From Escherichia phage ES12: a DNA stretch of 64,000 nucleotides. The notes below the pieces were generated by a model, which was not told where the DNA came from, did no database searches, and saw only the letters and a program-made list of their open reading frames with translations. How positions within the stretch are numbered: position 1 is the stretch's first letter; every line of letters starts with the position of its first letter. Shown here in pieces: positions 4,984 to 64,000 of the stretch. The stretch lies in the sequence record MN508614.1; one strand, 5' to 3'. The translations under genes were made by a program, and so were the position numbers.

Positions 4984-5577
4984 TTATTTCAGAGAATTAA
5001 TATATTCCTGAACATCGGCAGAGGTAGTTTCAACCCCAGAAATATTACCATTAAAGGTTTCAACTCGAGCAAGAGTATCTTCAATATCAACCTTAGTCAG
5101 TGCTGCAATTTCAACTACATCATCAGCAGTACTAATTCCAAGGGCATTCGCGGCGCGAGTTTCACGGATATATTCCAATTTAACTGCAAGTTCTTGGCGA
5201 GCATCATCTAACTCAACTACTTTCTTGGCGATTTCAATTCGCATTTCAGCATAACCATCAGCTTTAGTAGTCAACTGCTCAGCTGTTCGACGATATAGTA
5301 AACCAAGTTTAGCATGCATTGTTACATCTTGACCTTCCGAAAGGAGCTTGCGAATTTCACGCTCTTTTGATTCGGCCTGCTTATTCTTTTCGACAATAAG
5401 TTCACGAATACGCTTTTCTTCATTAATAGATTTAACAGAAGCAGTTTTTAGATCTTTAATCTTATCAAGTAGTTTTGCTGCCGCAGCAGTATACTGTTCT
5501 TCAACAGATAGATTTTTAGCCATAGCAGAACCAAGTTTAGTGCGAATAAACTCAACAATTTTCTTCAGTGTGTTCAT
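4984..5577 (-). CDS. Coiled-coil protein, possibly PspA/IM30-like
   Basis: 197-aa ORF, AGGAAA RBS, own early promoter; heptad-rich sequence with DTLARV segment. Confidence 0.7.
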
Positions 5578-58815: not shown

Positions 58816-58819
58816 CAAT

Positions 58820-58845
58820 GGGGACCTTTCGGTCCCCATATTTTT
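58820..58845 (+). terminator. Rho-independent terminator after gene 54
   Basis: ggggacc-tttc-ggtcccc hairpin followed by atattttta. Confidence 0.65.
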
Positions 58846-59134
58846 ATTTACGGAATGAAATGAAAGCAGCAACTGAAGCAACTAAACTGTCTTCAATATA
58901 AACTTCAATTTTTACCGGAGCTTCTGACTCAAATTTACCTGTTACTACACCCTGAAAAATACTTTCAGTCTGTTCTGGCTTTGAAAAATTTTCAGAAGGA
59001 AAAATTCCGAACTTTTTATCTGTTCCAAAAATTTTGATAAATTCATCGTAAACTGCTTCATTAAAAGCATTATCAGCAGGAATAACGCCTTCAACTACAA
59101 GTTCTTGACCTAAAAAGCGCAAAGAAGATTTCAT
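58844..59134 (-). CDS. Hypothetical protein downstream of the Alt paralogs, with own early promoter
   Basis: 96-aa ORF, ATG at 59134 with GAGGAA RBS. Confidence 0.6.
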   Translation of the reverse strand: MKSSLRFLGQELVVEGVIPADNAFNEAVYDEFIKIFGTDKKFGIFPSENFSKPEQTESIFQGVVTGKFESEAPVKIEVYIEDSLVASVAAFISFRK

Positions 59135-59165: not shown

Positions 59166-59195
59166 ACTATAACACAACACGAGGGACTTGTAAAC
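59166..59195 (-). promoter_or_regulatory. T4-type early promoter (GTTTAC, 18-nt spacer, TATAGT)
   Basis: -35 overlaps the stop codon of the upstream Alt paralog. Confidence 0.5.
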
Positions 59196-61252
59196 TACAT
59201 CTTGAACTTTTTAGACATTCCGTTGATGTTAACCAAAGAAGCTAAGATTTGAGAAACTTCATTTTCCTCTTCTTTTGATTCTTCTACAAGGAATTGATTA
59301 AATCCAGCCATTGGACGAACTTCACCAGTTTCCATTAGATGGTCTCCATCATATACTGATTCTTCTAATTGTTCAGAAGGAGGAACGATTGTACCTTCGA
59401 TTAGATACTTGTTATAAGCAGTTTCTTTCATAAAGTACGTACTTACTTTATTAATCTTCAGTAAAATTCCACGTGGTAGAATAACTTCAGCTTCTGATGG
59501 AAATCCTGATAAATGACCTGGAACGATAACTTTGATTCGCTCAGCTCCTTTAATTACCATACCCACGCTAGTTTCAGCATCTTCATTAGCATATGTAGAA
59601 TGACTACCCATATGCATCAAATCTTCTGCATCAACGGAACCTTCTCCTTCGCCAGAAAATACTGCGCCAGAATCATCTAGAGCCATATAGTTTTTACCAT
59701 GCTCACCGAAGATATTTGGTTTAAGCGATGTGGATACGAAGTTCTTGAAATAGAACATTTTGTTTTCAATGTTATGACGCAAAGTTTTAAAGGTAACTTC
59801 TTGTCCACGATAAAGCGTAGTTCCTGGAGGAAGAACTGAACCTTTAGCGAATGCAGAATCCAACGTCTCGATGTGCTTAATAGCTCGTTCCATATATTCT
59901 TCACGGGTAGAATCTGGTTTACCCAAAAGGAACGAGTTCATTTCAACATATGAATCTGCACAATAATCTTCAATTACATCAGACTCAGCCTGAGTTAATC
60001 CTTTTGGAGTTACTTCGGTGCTTGCGTATTCATATGCCTGAGCAGCAGATTCATTAATCAATTTATAAATGCCATTCATGACAAATTGAATAATAGCTAC
60101 CTTTTCGTCTGGTGTGGCTTTAGAACCTTTAACCAAATCATTGATAATTTTCTTAATAACATCAAAGCTATTAGAAATATTAATATCAGCGAGATCGCTT
60201 AAAATTTTATCAGTCTTATAATCAAAGAATTCTTTATTCTTTAAATATTCTTGAGAACCTTGATATGTTATATCGCTCTGTAACTTGATAGATGGATCAC
60301 GTAAACGTGCATGGGCTAATGCAATATGATTTCGGAAGCTTTCGAGTTCATAATCACTAGATTTAAAACGAGAAGCGCTTCTCATACCGCCTATAGCTCC
60401 TTTGCTGAAGTTTGAACCAATTTGAATAACGCCAGAGTTCATTGGTCCTTCTGCTTTATACACCGGAACTTTAGATTCAAACTCTTGATATTTCTTAGCA
60501 GCGAAGCTATCACCCTGAAGTGAAGCATCAACAGTAGAATATTGAGCTTGTGCTGCTAATCGACGACTAATTTTAGTTTTCTGAATAACAGCTTGGTCCG
60601 TGCGCTTATCATTTTCTAAAGCAATAGAAGCAGCAACAGCAACAGCTTTAGGAACAGCATTTCCTGTTTTAACGTCTACATAAACATCACCGACCTTTGA
60701 TTCAACTTTTGTGAATAACTCAGTTGAAATAGGAGGTACACCTGTAATGTCTTCTAAATTGGCATTTTTACGGTAAACCATAATATATGCATATTTCTTA
60801 TCATAGTCCCAGATTTCCTTTAAAAGAACATATCGACCTGCTCCTTTAGTACGTACTAAACGGTCAGCAATAACTTGCATTTGACGAGCTGCGCCATTTG
60901 TTTTACTTTTTATTACGCGGAATAGGCATGCGTCGATTTTATACTGTTTCATTGTTTGAAGAGCAGTATCAAAAACGGCATTAATGACACCAATTGGATT
61001 TCCACCCAAGTTTTTAAGCTTAACTAATGATAGTTTCTCATTAACACCTATCATTACGATATGCATCATTTTATCGCCTGGCTTAACGTTTTTATTCGTA
61101 TCACCACCAGAGGTATATGTACAAAATCTAAATCCAGGAAGCACGCTTTCTTCGCCGGCTTGAATAGCAAAAATTTGTGGTATTTTATGCTTAGGATTTA
61201 AGTTAACAACCGGCGCCGAAGCGCCGTCAAATAATTCTGTAATAAGTTCCAT
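59195..61252 (-). CDS. Alt-like ADP-ribosyltransferase, divergent tandem paralog
   Basis: 685 aa; N-terminus MELITELFD shared with Alt; ART motifs present (LYRGQ, FVSTSL, EAEVILPRG); central region diverged. Confidence 0.85.
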   Translation of the reverse strand: MELITELFDGASAPVVNLNPKHKIPQIFAIQAGEESVLPGFRFCTYTSGGDTNKNVKPGDKMMHIVMIGVNEKLSLVKLKNLGGNPIGVINAVFDTALQTMKQYKIDACLFRVIKSKTNGAARQMQVIADRLVRTKGAGRYVLLKEIWDYDKKYAYIMVYRKNANLEDITGVPPISTELFTKVESKVGDVYVDVKTGNAVPKAVAVAASIALENDKRTDQAVIQKTKISRRLAAQAQYSTVDASLQGDSFAAKKYQEFESKVPVYKAEGPMNSGVIQIGSNFSKGAIGGMRSASRFKSSDYELESFRNHIALAHARLRDPSIKLQSDITYQGSQEYLKNKEFFDYKTDKILSDLADINISNSFDVIKKIINDLVKGSKATPDEKVAIIQFVMNGIYKLINESAAQAYEYASTEVTPKGLTQAESDVIEDYCADSYVEMNSFLLGKPDSTREEYMERAIKHIETLDSAFAKGSVLPPGTTLYRGQEVTFKTLRHNIENKMFYFKNFVSTSLKPNIFGEHGKNYMALDDSGAVFSGEGEGSVDAEDLMHMGSHSTYANEDAETSVGMVIKGAERIKVIVPGHLSGFPSEAEVILPRGILLKINKVSTYFMKETAYNKYLIEGTIVPPSEQLEESVYDGDHLMETGEVRPMAGFNQFLVEESKEEENEVSQILASLVNINGMSKKFKM

Positions 61253-61255
61253 GAT

Positions 61256-63313
61256 TTATCCTTGAACGAACTTGTAAGGCATGTTTGCAATATCTATACA
61301 AGACGCAATAATTCCAAGAGATGATTCTACTTTCTGTTTAACGTTTGATGAAACAAATGATGCAAAGTCAACTCTGTCTTCTATTTCAATATCACCTGTC
61401 ATTGCAACTACTTCGCCGGTTTCCATTAGACGGTCACCGTCATAAATTACCGATTCGGTGAGTTCTTCTGTGGTCATAACTTCAGCTTGAATAAGCTTGT
61501 TGTTAGTTTTAACTGTTCCATCATTGTAAGATGCATCGGTTATTTTATTAACTTTGACCATTAATCCACGTGGCAAAATGACTTCCATTTCATTTGAAGG
61601 TGCTAAACTTCCACCTGGTAAAACAACATTGACTTTATCAGCCCCAGTAATAACCCATCCAATTCCAACTAAATTATCGCTAGAATTTACTAGTCCTTCA
61701 TCAGTTTTATCAATAGAAACACTTAAACGCTTTTCGTCTGGTAAAACACCCACAGATGAATCAGTCATCCAGGTACCAAAAATGTTTGGATATAATGATG
61801 TTGACACAAAATTTCTAAAATAAAAAACTCGATTTTTTACCAGTGCTTCATATATTGAAGGTAACATTCGTTGTGAACGATACAAAGTAATACCTTTTGG
61901 TAATCGTTCACCATTTTTAAAGGCAGAATCTAAATTATCAATAGCTTTTTCTATATCAGATGCTGTCAAAATACTTGTACGCTCATCTGGATTATATAAT
62001 CCCAAAAGAGCGTTATTTATGTCTACATATCCTGAACTTACGTATTCACGAATTCCACGTTTTTGTGCCGGTGTGTATTTAGATGAATCTTTATTTTCGA
62101 CTATAGGATGTAGTGACCATCCAGCGGTAAGAGCATATCCACGCAATTCTCTTCGAATAATCTTTGTTTTTATTGCATTCCAAGAATTTTGTACTAACTC
62201 ATTCGCAGCATCTTGATTTAAATGCGAATGCTTGTTAATGTTTCTTTCTAACCAAGCACCTTTATATTTTTCTAAAGTATCATCAACTATAGAAGCAATA
62301 GTTTCTAAAGTTTTTATTGAAGTAATAGATTCTTTTCGTAATCTTTCTAAAGCTTTATTTTTTATTTCTGCATTAACATCAGATTCTTTATCTTCAGGAA
62401 TTATAGAAGCTTCTCTGAATGCCATTCCAGCTGTAACACTACTAAGAGCATTCTCTAATGCAAATCCTGAAGTAGAAATAACAGTTAATTCATTAGCGTC
62501 AGAAATTAAAGGAGCGTCAGCAGGTTTATTTAATTCTGCTGCTGAAGCCTCAAATTTTTGAAACATCGGCGTTTCAAATCTAGAAGATTCCAATGATTGA
62601 CTTTGCGCAATTGCTCTACGGGAAATTTTAACTTTAACGATTACAGCTTGGTCAGAACGTTTATCATTTTCTTGCGCAATAGATGCTGCAATTGCCTCAT
62701 TTTTAGTTACTTGAGCTCCAGTATCTTTATTGATATAAACATCACCGACCTTCGATTCAACTTTAGTAAAGAGCTCAGTACTAATTTCCGGAACTCCCGG
62801 AATGTCTTCTAGTGATACATTTTTGCGATGTATAAGAATATATGCATACTTTTTATCGTAATCCCAGAGTTCCTTAAGAAGGACGTATCTGCCACCTGAA
62901 CGACTACGGATAAGTCTATCAGCAATAACTTGAATTTGTCGAGCTTGACCAGCGGTTTTAGACTTAAGAATACGAAGCATACAGGCATCAATTTTATACT
63001 GACGCATTGTTTGCATCGCAACAGTAAAAACTGAATTGATATAATTAATTGGGCTTGGACCAAGACCTTTTAATTTAGCAATTGAACCTTTAGCAGTTAA
63101 TGTAAAAGGAACAATATGCATCATTTTATCGCCCATCTTTAAATCGCGATTAGTATCACCTCCAGATGTATAGGTACATAAACGAAAGCCTGGTTGTTCA
63201 ATTGCATCATCAACATGAACTGAAAAAATTTGCGGTATTTTCTTCTTTGGATTTAAGTTTGTAATCGGAAGAGTAGTATCTTCGTCAAATAATTCTGTAA
63301 TAAGTTCCATCAT
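61256..63313 (-). CDS. alt: Alt ADP-ribosyltransferase (head-packaged)
   Basis: 685 aa; MMELITELFDEDTTLPITNL; ART motifs LYRSQ, FVSTSL, EMEVILPRG. Confidence 0.93.
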   Translation of the reverse strand: MMELITELFDEDTTLPITNLNPKKKIPQIFSVHVDDAIEQPGFRLCTYTSGGDTNRDLKMGDKMMHIVPFTLTAKGSIAKLKGLGPSPINYINSVFTVAMQTMRQYKIDACMLRILKSKTAGQARQIQVIADRLIRSRSGGRYVLLKELWDYDKKYAYILIHRKNVSLEDIPGVPEISTELFTKVESKVGDVYINKDTGAQVTKNEAIAASIAQENDKRSDQAVIVKVKISRRAIAQSQSLESSRFETPMFQKFEASAAELNKPADAPLISDANELTVISTSGFALENALSSVTAGMAFREASIIPEDKESDVNAEIKNKALERLRKESITSIKTLETIASIVDDTLEKYKGAWLERNINKHSHLNQDAANELVQNSWNAIKTKIIRRELRGYALTAGWSLHPIVENKDSSKYTPAQKRGIREYVSSGYVDINNALLGLYNPDERTSILTASDIEKAIDNLDSAFKNGERLPKGITLYRSQRMLPSIYEALVKNRVFYFRNFVSTSLYPNIFGTWMTDSSVGVLPDEKRLSVSIDKTDEGLVNSSDNLVGIGWVITGADKVNVVLPGGSLAPSNEMEVILPRGLMVKVNKITDASYNDGTVKTNNKLIQAEVMTTEELTESVIYDGDRLMETGEVVAMTGDIEIEDRVDFASFVSSNVKQKVESSLGIIASCIDIANMPYKFVQG

Positions 63314-63333: not shown

Positions 63334-63341
63334 TATTTATA
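63334..63341 (-). promoter_or_regulatory. T4 late promoter TATAAATA upstream of alt
   Basis: Minus strand TATAAATA about 20 nt upstream of the alt ATG. Confidence 0.5.
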
Positions 63342-63346
63342 AAATT

Positions 63347-63364
63347 AAAGGCCCGAAGGCCTTT
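63347..63364 (-). terminator. Hairpin with UUCG loop between the 63363..63551 gene and alt
   Basis: aaaggcc-cgaa-ggccttt inverted repeat. Confidence 0.45.
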
Positions 63365-63551
63365 AGTAATCTAGTGGTAAGAGAGTACGATATATTTCAA
63401 ACTTTGGTCCTTTTTCATAGGCATCAAATGTTTCTGTAAATTTATTATAAGCGTATGCATCTACAAATTCGAGAATGACTTGTGATACAGAAGTAGAAAC
63501 ATCTCCACCTTCTTTTTGAGCAATGACAATTGTTTCTAAGTAAGCTTTCAT
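63363..63551 (-). CDS. Hypothetical small protein between ligase and alt
   Basis: 62-aa ORF; ATG overlaps ligase stop as ATGA. Confidence 0.6.
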   Translation of the reverse strand: MKAYLETIVIAQKEGGDVSTSVSQVILEFVDAYAYNKFTETFDAYEKGPKFEIYRTLLPLDY

Positions 63552-64000
63552 AAACCAGTTACCTCATGAAAATCACCAAATACATCCTCGAATGTATTAG
63601 CTTTAGTTTTATCTTCACGTAAACGAATCGCAATCGGAAGAAATAATTTAACGTAATCAGTGCGGCCATCAGATTTTAACCAACCGTTGCATTCGCACTC
63701 TAGAATTTTTCCAATATAATAATTTTGGTTTTCCATAATGCGAGTACGGTCAAGTTCATGTGATTTTACGCCGGCTTTGTCTTTTAAGCCTGAACCAGCA
63801 TTTACCTTAATTTTTCCACACTCTGACTCAAGAATAAATCCACCTGCTTTAGTAGGGTCTTTACGGTGAGGATAAATTCCTACAATTTTTAAATCAACAT
63901 CAATTACTTCTTTAAATTTATAGAGATTTTTTGAACGAGCATTTTCCCATAATCCATCGATATTTTTGAGAATAATACCTTCAAGACCTTGGTCAATATA
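63548..64000 (-). CDS. 30: DNA ligase (gene 30), 3' portion only; gene continues past window end
   Basis: Frame reads ...KSHELDRTRIMENQNYYIGKILECECNGWLKSDGRTDYVKLFLPIAIRLREDKTKANTFEDVFGDFHEVTGL; ORF-track entry 63548..63736 is only the part after an internal Met. Confidence 0.9.
   Translation of the reverse strand, partial: YIDQGLEGIILKNIDGLWENARSKNLYKFKEVIDVDLKIVGIYPHRKDPTKAGGFILESECGKIKVNAGSGLKDKAGVKSHELDRTRIMENQNYYIGKILECECNGWLKSDGRTDYVKLFLPIAIRLREDKTKANTFEDVFGDFHEVTGL

Follow-up and report, generated by a model that had tools for sequence, protein, structure and literature searches.

The tandem alt and alt2 genes of Escherichia phage ES12: an ancestral pair of T-even phages and a probable second injected ADP-ribosyltransferase

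The DNA considered here is a 64,000-nucleotide stretch of Escherichia phage ES12 (sequence record MN508614.1), referred to below as the window, in which two genes of the Alt family of phage ADP-ribosyltransferases (ARTs) lie head-to-tail. The upstream gene, copy A, is the orthologue of the alt gene of phage T4, and the downstream gene, copy B, an ancient paralogue of alt that is mostly deleted in T4 itself. As a sequence feature, the tandem pair is ordinary and copy B is already known, being annotated as Alt2, alt.-2, or Alt-like in hundreds of records, and an earlier note made from the letters of this DNA correctly described a common feature. The reading proposed for copy B, with a probability of about 65%, is that it would encode, as part of an ancestral alt–alt2 pair, a further ADP-ribosyltransferase that is packaged in the head, injected, and directed at substrates of its own.

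The two open reading frames (ORFs) of 685 residues reported in the earlier note have the same coordinates in the ORF list (61256-63313 and 59195-61252), and both their 3-nt spacing (TAA-ATC-ATG) and the MELITELFD start of each product are as described there; the strand, which the note had not given, is minus for both. The maximal ORF of copy A, reaching to 63313, opens with MMELITELFD, and the gap between its ribosome-binding site, GAGAGG, and the start codon is only 2 nt for the first ATG but 5 nt for the second. Because of this spacing, and because the second ATG is the annotated start in T4 and Pinarejo, the real copy A product probably has 684 residues (61256-63310). Copy B starts 3 nt past the copy A stop, with AAGGA 6 nt 5' of its ATG. 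Some 20 nt ahead of the copy A start lies TATAAATA, the only T4-type late-promoter motif within 58.7-63.7 kb; across the whole window such motifs are enriched (23 observed, 10.3 expected). Since this single motif precedes copy A, since no terminator was found between copy A and copy B, and since AAGGA precedes copy B, the motif is presumed to be the promoter of a two-gene late operon formed by alt and copy B. Moreover, 5.2 kb of the window are 100% identical to Escherichia phage ES26 (MN508618), of the T4 group (Tequatrovirus), whose GenBank record carries no annotation.

The copy A and copy B proteins share 41% identity over their full length (E=1e-156), and this similarity is distributed unequally. 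Residues 1-238, which correspond to the conserved N-terminal part pointed out previously, are 66% identical in protein and 67% in DNA, and the ART domain and C-terminus together (residues ~420-685) show 35% identity, with strong divergence of copy B from copy A between the STS and E-x-E motifs. The divergence claimed for the centres is confirmed, as residues ~239-420 are only 15% identical and profile-profile comparison detected no homology between them (hhalign probability of 0.6%, with small alignments); thus, the two centres are either non-homologous or diverged past what small alignments can detect. The 5' ends of the genes, described in the earlier note as near-identical, are so only for the first 28 nt (nine codons), which are the longest exact DNA word common to both genes, and beyond them the DNA is ~67% identical. 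Both proteins score well above the gathering cut-off of PF03496 (ADPrib_exo_Tox; 23.4 bits), with 120.9 bits for copy A and 71.6 bits for copy B, and both belong to PHROG 802, which matches copy B over its full length (E=5e-255). The Tevenvirinae_ADPRT family, PF26846, is annotated on a 99%-identical protein (P0001) and on all relatives, and no NCBIfam model matched copy A or copy B. Copy B thus has the layout of the Alt family, with an N-terminal Tevenvirinae_ADPRT module followed by an ART domain within the family length of about 680-710 residues, and it occupies the place usual for the family, flanked by gene 30/alt.1 and alt.-3/gene 54 and served by a late promoter. The N-terminal module, with an alpha/beta fold in the predicted model, is proposed to serve in head incorporation and delivery, and the central region is a candidate for substrate recognition or regulation (Table 1).

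Table 1. Coordinates of the alt–alt2 locus in the window, of the parts of copy B, and of fusion genes in other sequences
Feature	Position	Strand	Remarks
Copy A (alt)	61256-63310	-	T4 Alt orthologue; PF03496 E=5.6e-35; PHROG 802
Copy A catalytic residues	R478 61877-61879; S503-T-S505 61796-61804; E574-M-E576 61583-61591	-	
Copy B (alt2, intact alt.-2)	59195-61252	-	685 residues plus stop; ancient alt paralogue
Copy B N-terminal module, residues 1-238	60539-61252	-	basic; PF26846; ITE-6 motif at 61235-61243
Copy B central region, residues 239-420	59993-60538	-	all-helical in model; no detectable homology to the Alt equivalent
Copy B ART domain, residues 421-631	59360-59992	-	ends at putative gp21 site L629-E-E631
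Copy B catalytic residues	R482 59807-59809; S507-T-S509 59726-59734; E587-A-E589 59486-59494	-	
Copy B putative C-terminal propeptide, residues 632-685	59198-59359	-	conserved SVYDGDHLMETGEV block
Segment missing in T4 and 90 other records	59215-60913		1,699 bp; ~codons 114-680 of copy B; out of frame
Intrinsic-terminator-like hairpin	63346-63365	-	TAAAGGCCTTCGGGCCTTTA, then T-rich tail
T4-type late promoter motif	63334-63341	-	TATAAATA
Sigma-70/T4-early-like promoter	59166-59194	-	TTTACA-17-TATAGT with TG, 10/12 matches; directly past copy B stop
alt.-3	58844-59134	-	96 residues, DUF5498; PF17602 E=1.4e-64; downstream neighbour of the pair
Bidirectional terminator hairpin	58818-58839		between alt.-3 and convergent gene 54
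Fusion gene, ECML-134	L022 1742-3802		
Fusion gene, PST	L023 3222-5282		
Fusion gene, metagenomic contig L020	5001-7055		
Fusion gene, metagenomic contig L021	5001-7061		

Both copies retain the ART motifs named in the earlier note (the Arg of LYR, STS, and the E-x-E of EVILPRG), and careful alignment reveals no loss of catalytic residues, the motifs being invariant in 26 sequences of both clades. In copy B, R482, S507, S509, E587, and E589 are unchanged even in clade members that retain only 46-51% identity. Moreover, the predicted model of copy B has the ART fold and resembles arginine-specific ART toxins. A search for a solved structure of Alt returned none, its sole match being a marginal one of copy A to CdtA, with which the YR and ExE motifs line up. 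In every feature that could be tested on sequence and predicted model, copy B has the traits of the R-S-E mono-ART clade and of the Tevenvirinae Alt family, and the two copies can be described as full-length Alt-family paralogues with intact catalytic motifs and seemingly unrelated centres.

T4 Alt proper is the RNA polymerase alpha Arg265 'alteration' enzyme. The alignments foreseen in the earlier note give 98.1% identity to T4 Alt (NP_049811) for copy A, which identifies it as the T4 Alt orthologue, and 41.6% for copy B; given this value and its place in a separate downstream clade, copy B is classed as a paralogue, and not an orthologue, of T4 Alt. The T4 record bears out that this phage has a single full-length Alt at the locus. 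Beside it are located alt.-1 and alt.-2 (NP_049810 and NP_049809; PHROGs 23015 and 15247), which are 95-96% identical to residues 1-56 and 62-116 of copy B and only 56-62% identical to Alt itself. As they are closer to copy B than to Alt, both are copy B remnants, described by the T4 RefSeq curators as genes that 'reflect an old duplication of the first part of gene alt'. They lie at 5266-5451 and 5066-5269 of the T4 locus (L001) and were compared with 60905-61252 of the window. Like copy B, they are found between alt and alt.-3, but, unlike it, they are fragments, the gene having been broken in T4 by a frameshift of 1 nt and by an out-of-frame loss of 1,699 bp. On either side of the deleted segment, T4 DNA can be aligned with the window, and this segment is flanked by an 8-bp microhomology, ACTTTTTA, at 59206-59213 and 60905-60912. 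The other lesion of T4, which splits alt.-1 from alt.-2, is the loss of 1 nt from an A-run near codon 54 of copy B (AATAAAAAC becoming AATAAAAC). The deletion junction is contiguous in 91 records, including the natural isolates slur03, vB_EcoM_112, G8, and SG1. Thus, the suggestion that the second copy is an unusual extra does not hold, as copy B is the intact form of the usual gene next to alt in T4.

The copy-number survey in related phages, which the note had also envisaged, shows that some 80% of the records of related phages have copy B, those of T2 and T6 among them with the gene at full length, and its centre (59400-60600) is matched in 401 phage records at 90-99% nucleotide identity. 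These counts come from GenBank phage records, as a scan of IMG/VR yielded 5 loci, too few for a census. The gene is labelled alt.-2 in RB3, 'ADP-ribosyltransferase Alt2' in BASEL phage Bas38, and 'Alt-like' elsewhere, and T6 carries the comment 'apparent insertion in alt.-2; also similar to alt'. The genes called 'Alt2', 'alt.-2', or 'Alt-like RNA polymerase ADP-ribosyltransferase' (T2, T6, RB3, Bas38, and about 400 Tequatrovirus records) are the same gene as copy B, with 90-100% nucleotide identity, and the Alt2-annotated Tequatrovirus genes (PF26846 and PF03496; PHROG 802) show no structural difference from it. Nolan et al. 2006 (PMC1524935) had already noted that alt has paralogues, one of them, in phage 44RR, of full length.

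The same tandem pair is present in phage JS10 and in a metagenomic relative, between ligase and DUF5498/gp54. Neighbour-joining places the upstream copies in one clade and the downstream copies in another, and ES26/T4-type, L009, and JS10 members occur in both. These separate clades, together with the JS10 and metagenomic outgroups, indicate that the duplication is older than these lineages and that the intact pair is ancestral. Thus, on this phylogenetic evidence, the T4 state is a derived loss and not a partial duplication, the long form is not the product of an insertion, and the alt–alt2 pair is the normal ancestral state of T-even phages. By its prevalence, it is the majority state in Tequatroviruses.

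All 11 copy B orthologues sampled are intact and have exactly 685 codons, and ratios of non-synonymous to synonymous substitution (dN/dS) were calculated across them by the Nei-Gojobori method. The ratio is 0.043 for the whole gene, with 3,919 synonymous and 682 non-synonymous pairwise differences, and reaches 0.010 in the N-terminal module, 0.081 in the centre, 0.038 in the ART domain, and 0.010 in the C-terminal tail. Copy B is under strong purifying selection, similar to that on copy A (dN/dS 0.05-0.08). The most constrained parts of copy B are the N-terminal module and the C-terminal tail, as would be expected of parts that contact conserved phage components rather than the host.

T4 Alt is a prohead-core protein, present in ~40 copies per head and ejected with the DNA (PMC9026906), and is cut by the prohead protease gp21 after ITE-6 and LTE-619 into a mature protein of 68.2 kDa (PMC5694885). 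Copy A has both sites, ITE-6 and LTE-619 (61454-61462), and trimming at them gives a predicted mass of 68.1 kDa, whose agreement with the published value validates the mapping of the sites. Copy B keeps MELITE|LFD exactly, and its L629-E-E631|S (59360-59368) aligns with LTE-619 and is followed by the block SVYDGDHLMETGEV; both E6 and E631 are invariant across the two clades. By this motif alignment, residues 632-685 of copy B are the counterpart of the propeptide removed from T4 Alt after LTE-619, and the predicted mature copy B would have 625 residues and 69.1 kDa. In addition, the N-terminal module is basic in both paralogues (isoelectric points of 9.5-9.7; 9.7 in copy B).

On this basis, it is proposed that alt and copy B would be transcribed late from the single TATAAATA promoter, copy B being translated from its own AAGGA site, and that the basic N-terminal module (residues 1-238) and the terminal propeptides could steer both proteins into the prohead core. 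There, gp21 would trim copy B after ITE-6 and L629-E-E631 to a mature protein of ~69 kDa, which could then be ejected together with the DNA. In the new host, the R-S-E site of copy B (R482, S507-T-S509, and E587-x-E589) would move ADP-ribose from NAD+ to arginines of host proteins, and the non-homologous helical centre and the diverged ART domain may give copy B substrates other than those of Alt. The suggestion of the earlier note, an injected ART with a different host target, agrees with the cleavage motifs, the late operon, and the strong purifying selection.

The alt locus has also been reshaped by recombination. A single fusion gene of ~686 residues, with the head of Alt and the body of copy B, occurs in the finished genomes of ECML-134 (and vB_EcoM_SCS4) and of Yersinia phage PST, where it is annotated plainly as 'Alt', and in two metagenomic contigs. 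An assembly artefact was considered for these hybrid genes and discarded, as two finished genomes (ECML-134 and PST) carry them with different crossovers. The crossovers lie inside the conserved N-module, at nt ~300 in PST, nt 455-475 in ECML-134, and nt ~545 in L020, and the fusions derive from three independent unequal exchanges in which Alt's own catalytic body was lost and that of Alt2 was kept. The idea that the repeated 5' ends are a recombination substrate is thus supported by the fusions, but its detail has to be corrected, since the crossovers fall at nt ~300-550 and not in the first 28 nt. Moreover, the upstream Alt is dimorphic, with a type of 684 residues (T4, ES26) and another of 697 residues (T2, T6, RB3, Bas38). 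When the window gene (61256-63310, minus strand) was compared with loci L011-L014, L017, L018, and L019, the two types were 98-100% identical in their N-termini and 92-98% in their C-termini, whereas the centres were 30-44% and the ART domains 40-78% identical. Therefore, with two Alt types and Alt2, at least three catalytic bodies circulate on the same putative delivery scaffold. A tentative extension, held at somewhat less than even odds, is that the alt locus functions as a modular effector-delivery system, in which a constrained head-targeting N-module and propeptides carry interchangeable bodies (T4-type Alt, T2/T6-type Alt, and Alt2) reshuffled by unequal recombination, and in which Alt2 would be an injected ART with targets distinct from those of Alt, possibly a host-defence or stress-response protein, overlooked because T4 deleted the gene.

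A search with residues 1-238 for the N-module on other cargo returned only five truncated Alt-like proteins, and the idea is unsupported. Short proteins with the Alt N-module (PF26846) and no ART domain include P0122 (Salmonella phage Melville, 323 residues), P0121 (379 residues), and P0125 (371 residues), and 'split' Alt genes are annotated in Acinetobacter phages; N-module-only or split versions of Alt may, therefore, occur in other T4-like groups. The terminal 91 nt of the Staphylococcus phage SAJK-IND record (GenBank MG010123.1, 32082-32172) are 93% identical to copy B, probably through contamination or chimeric assembly, and the 'Enterococcus faecalis' and 'Pseudomonas' labels on some Alt-like sequences are similar oddities.

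Copy B could also be a redundant back-up of Alt, packaged and injected to modify what is essentially Alt's own set of host proteins, RNA polymerase alpha included, and providing extra dose or robustness. The arginine-type E-x-E motif and the domain order are common to both copies, reports describe Alt as non-essential and as acting on several substrates (PMC9026906; PMC5512222), and in nature either catalytic body can be lost, that of copy B in T4-type phages and that of Alt in PST and ECML-134. However, the central ~180 residues have no detectable homology, the ART domains are only 35% identical, and both genes have been held at dN/dS 0.04-0.08 since before the genera split, which pure redundancy seldom sustains. 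Redundancy is, thus, considered unlikely: the non-homologous centres, the divergence between STS and E-x-E, and the long coexistence of both copies under purifying selection, side by side since before the split of Tequatrovirus and JS10 in the tree, make distinct substrates likelier. A still less probable alternative is that copy B is an active ART that is not packaged, with a late intracellular role, as a late counterpart of ModA/ModB, or a role in virion assembly. The late promoter would equally fit late intracellular action, and the literature searched yielded no study in which proteomics had detected copy B in virions. Nevertheless, the N-module and the C-propeptide are not needed for catalysis and yet are the most constrained parts of the protein, the packaged Alt has them too, along with the two gp21 sites mapped in it by experiment, and the natural fusions join the Alt N-module to the copy B body in an intact gene, which suggests that the N-modules are interchangeable. 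That copy B is merely a decaying, functionless duplicate, with T4 further along the same path, might be surmised from its deletion in T4-type phages, its frameshift in Elenatom, and some shortened forms in the protein collection, but this reading is effectively refuted by the selection analysis: the low dN/dS, the constant length, and the excess of synonymous differences reported above are accompanied by catalytic and cleavage residues that are invariant in copies only 46-51% identical and by orthologues kept in JS10-type phages.

Several observations, nevertheless, weigh against copy B being a second injected enzyme with its own substrates. The gene is dispensable, as it is mostly deleted in T4 and 90 other records, and the protein collection holds ~55 shortened sequences beside ~780 full-length ones. 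In Elenatom, copy B (L008, 2896-4939) is divided into overlapping ORFs of 544 and 140 residues in different frames, either by a real frameshift or by a sequencing error; the three Alt-like genes annotated in this phage reflect that split, and a third Alt paralogue was rejected. PST and ECML-134 live without Alt's own catalytic body, which fits partial redundancy better than strictly distinct roles. The L-x-E/I-x-E motifs are short, with 7-8 per protein, and their presence alone is no proof of cleavage, and the copy B model is of moderate confidence, being poor at residues 517-555 and 629-662. Finally, the literature searched contains no direct evidence of copy B expression, virion incorporation, cleavage, activity, or targets in any phage; searches on alt.-1/alt.-2, Alt2, Alt paralogues, and virion proteomics returned only Nolan et al. 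2006, nothing functional, and no virion proteome covering copy B.

Compared with T4 Alt (gpAlt), a head-packaged, injected NAD+:arginine mono-ADP-ribosyltransferase, copy B is alike in length, domain order, N-module (66%), R-S-E motifs, both gp21 cleavage motifs, genomic position, and late promoter, and differs in its overall sequence (42% identity), its separate clade, its centre of ~180 residues with no detectable homology, and the diverged stretch from STS to E-x-E. The C3-like and VIP2-like R-S-E mono-ART toxins (Vis, C3bot, iota/CDTa, and Certhrax) are secreted and have their own delivery domains, whereas copy B has a phage-specific N-module and propeptides for delivery through the capsid. 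T4 ModA and ModB share with copy B the R-S-E ART clade and the phage group (PMC5512222), but they are small, early-expressed, not packaged, and lack the N-module and the propeptides, copy B being of the Alt type.

Regarding the surroundings of the pair, the hairpin ahead of the alt promoter closes the upstream alt.1/ligase transcript, and the record of phage G10400 has a terminator annotated at the matching position, as it also does at the equivalent of the hairpin beyond alt.-3, the likely end of the alt–alt2(–alt.-3) transcripts. The promoter-like site past the copy B stop is presumed to drive alt.-3, whose position is the same in T4, T2, T6, JS10, and L009. In T4, mutations that extend the C-terminus of alt.-3 allow escape from the CmdTAC defence system (bioRxiv 10.1101/2024.02.24.581662), and that work was set aside as evidence on copy B, since its subject is the neighbour alt.-3. 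Upstream, alt.1 (63363-63551, minus strand, 62 residues) matches the Pfam family 'Phage_blade' (PF24647, E=1.9e-29) with a 4-nt overlap at the ligase stop. Gene 30, which encodes DNA ligase, has its 3' end, uninterrupted, at 63548-64000 (minus strand), and a broken ligase was rejected for the 62-residue ORF at 63548-63736 (minus strand), as its frame stays open up to the edge of the window; the short ORF merely reflects how the ORF list handles genes that continue past that edge.

What is known of injected phage ARTs comes almost entirely from T4, which belongs to the minority without Alt2, whereas T2, T6, and ~80% of sequenced relatives retain an intact, strongly constrained second enzyme. 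Moreover, T4 Alt has no true equivalent in the 'Alt' of T2 and T6, whose catalytic body is only 30-78% identical to that of T4, and some phages annotated with 'Alt', such as PST, really hold a fusion of the Alt head with the Alt2 body. Thus, in comparisons of T2, T4, and T6 on host defence systems and in studies of host takeover by ADP-ribosylation, the repertoires of injected ARTs would have to be regarded as different.

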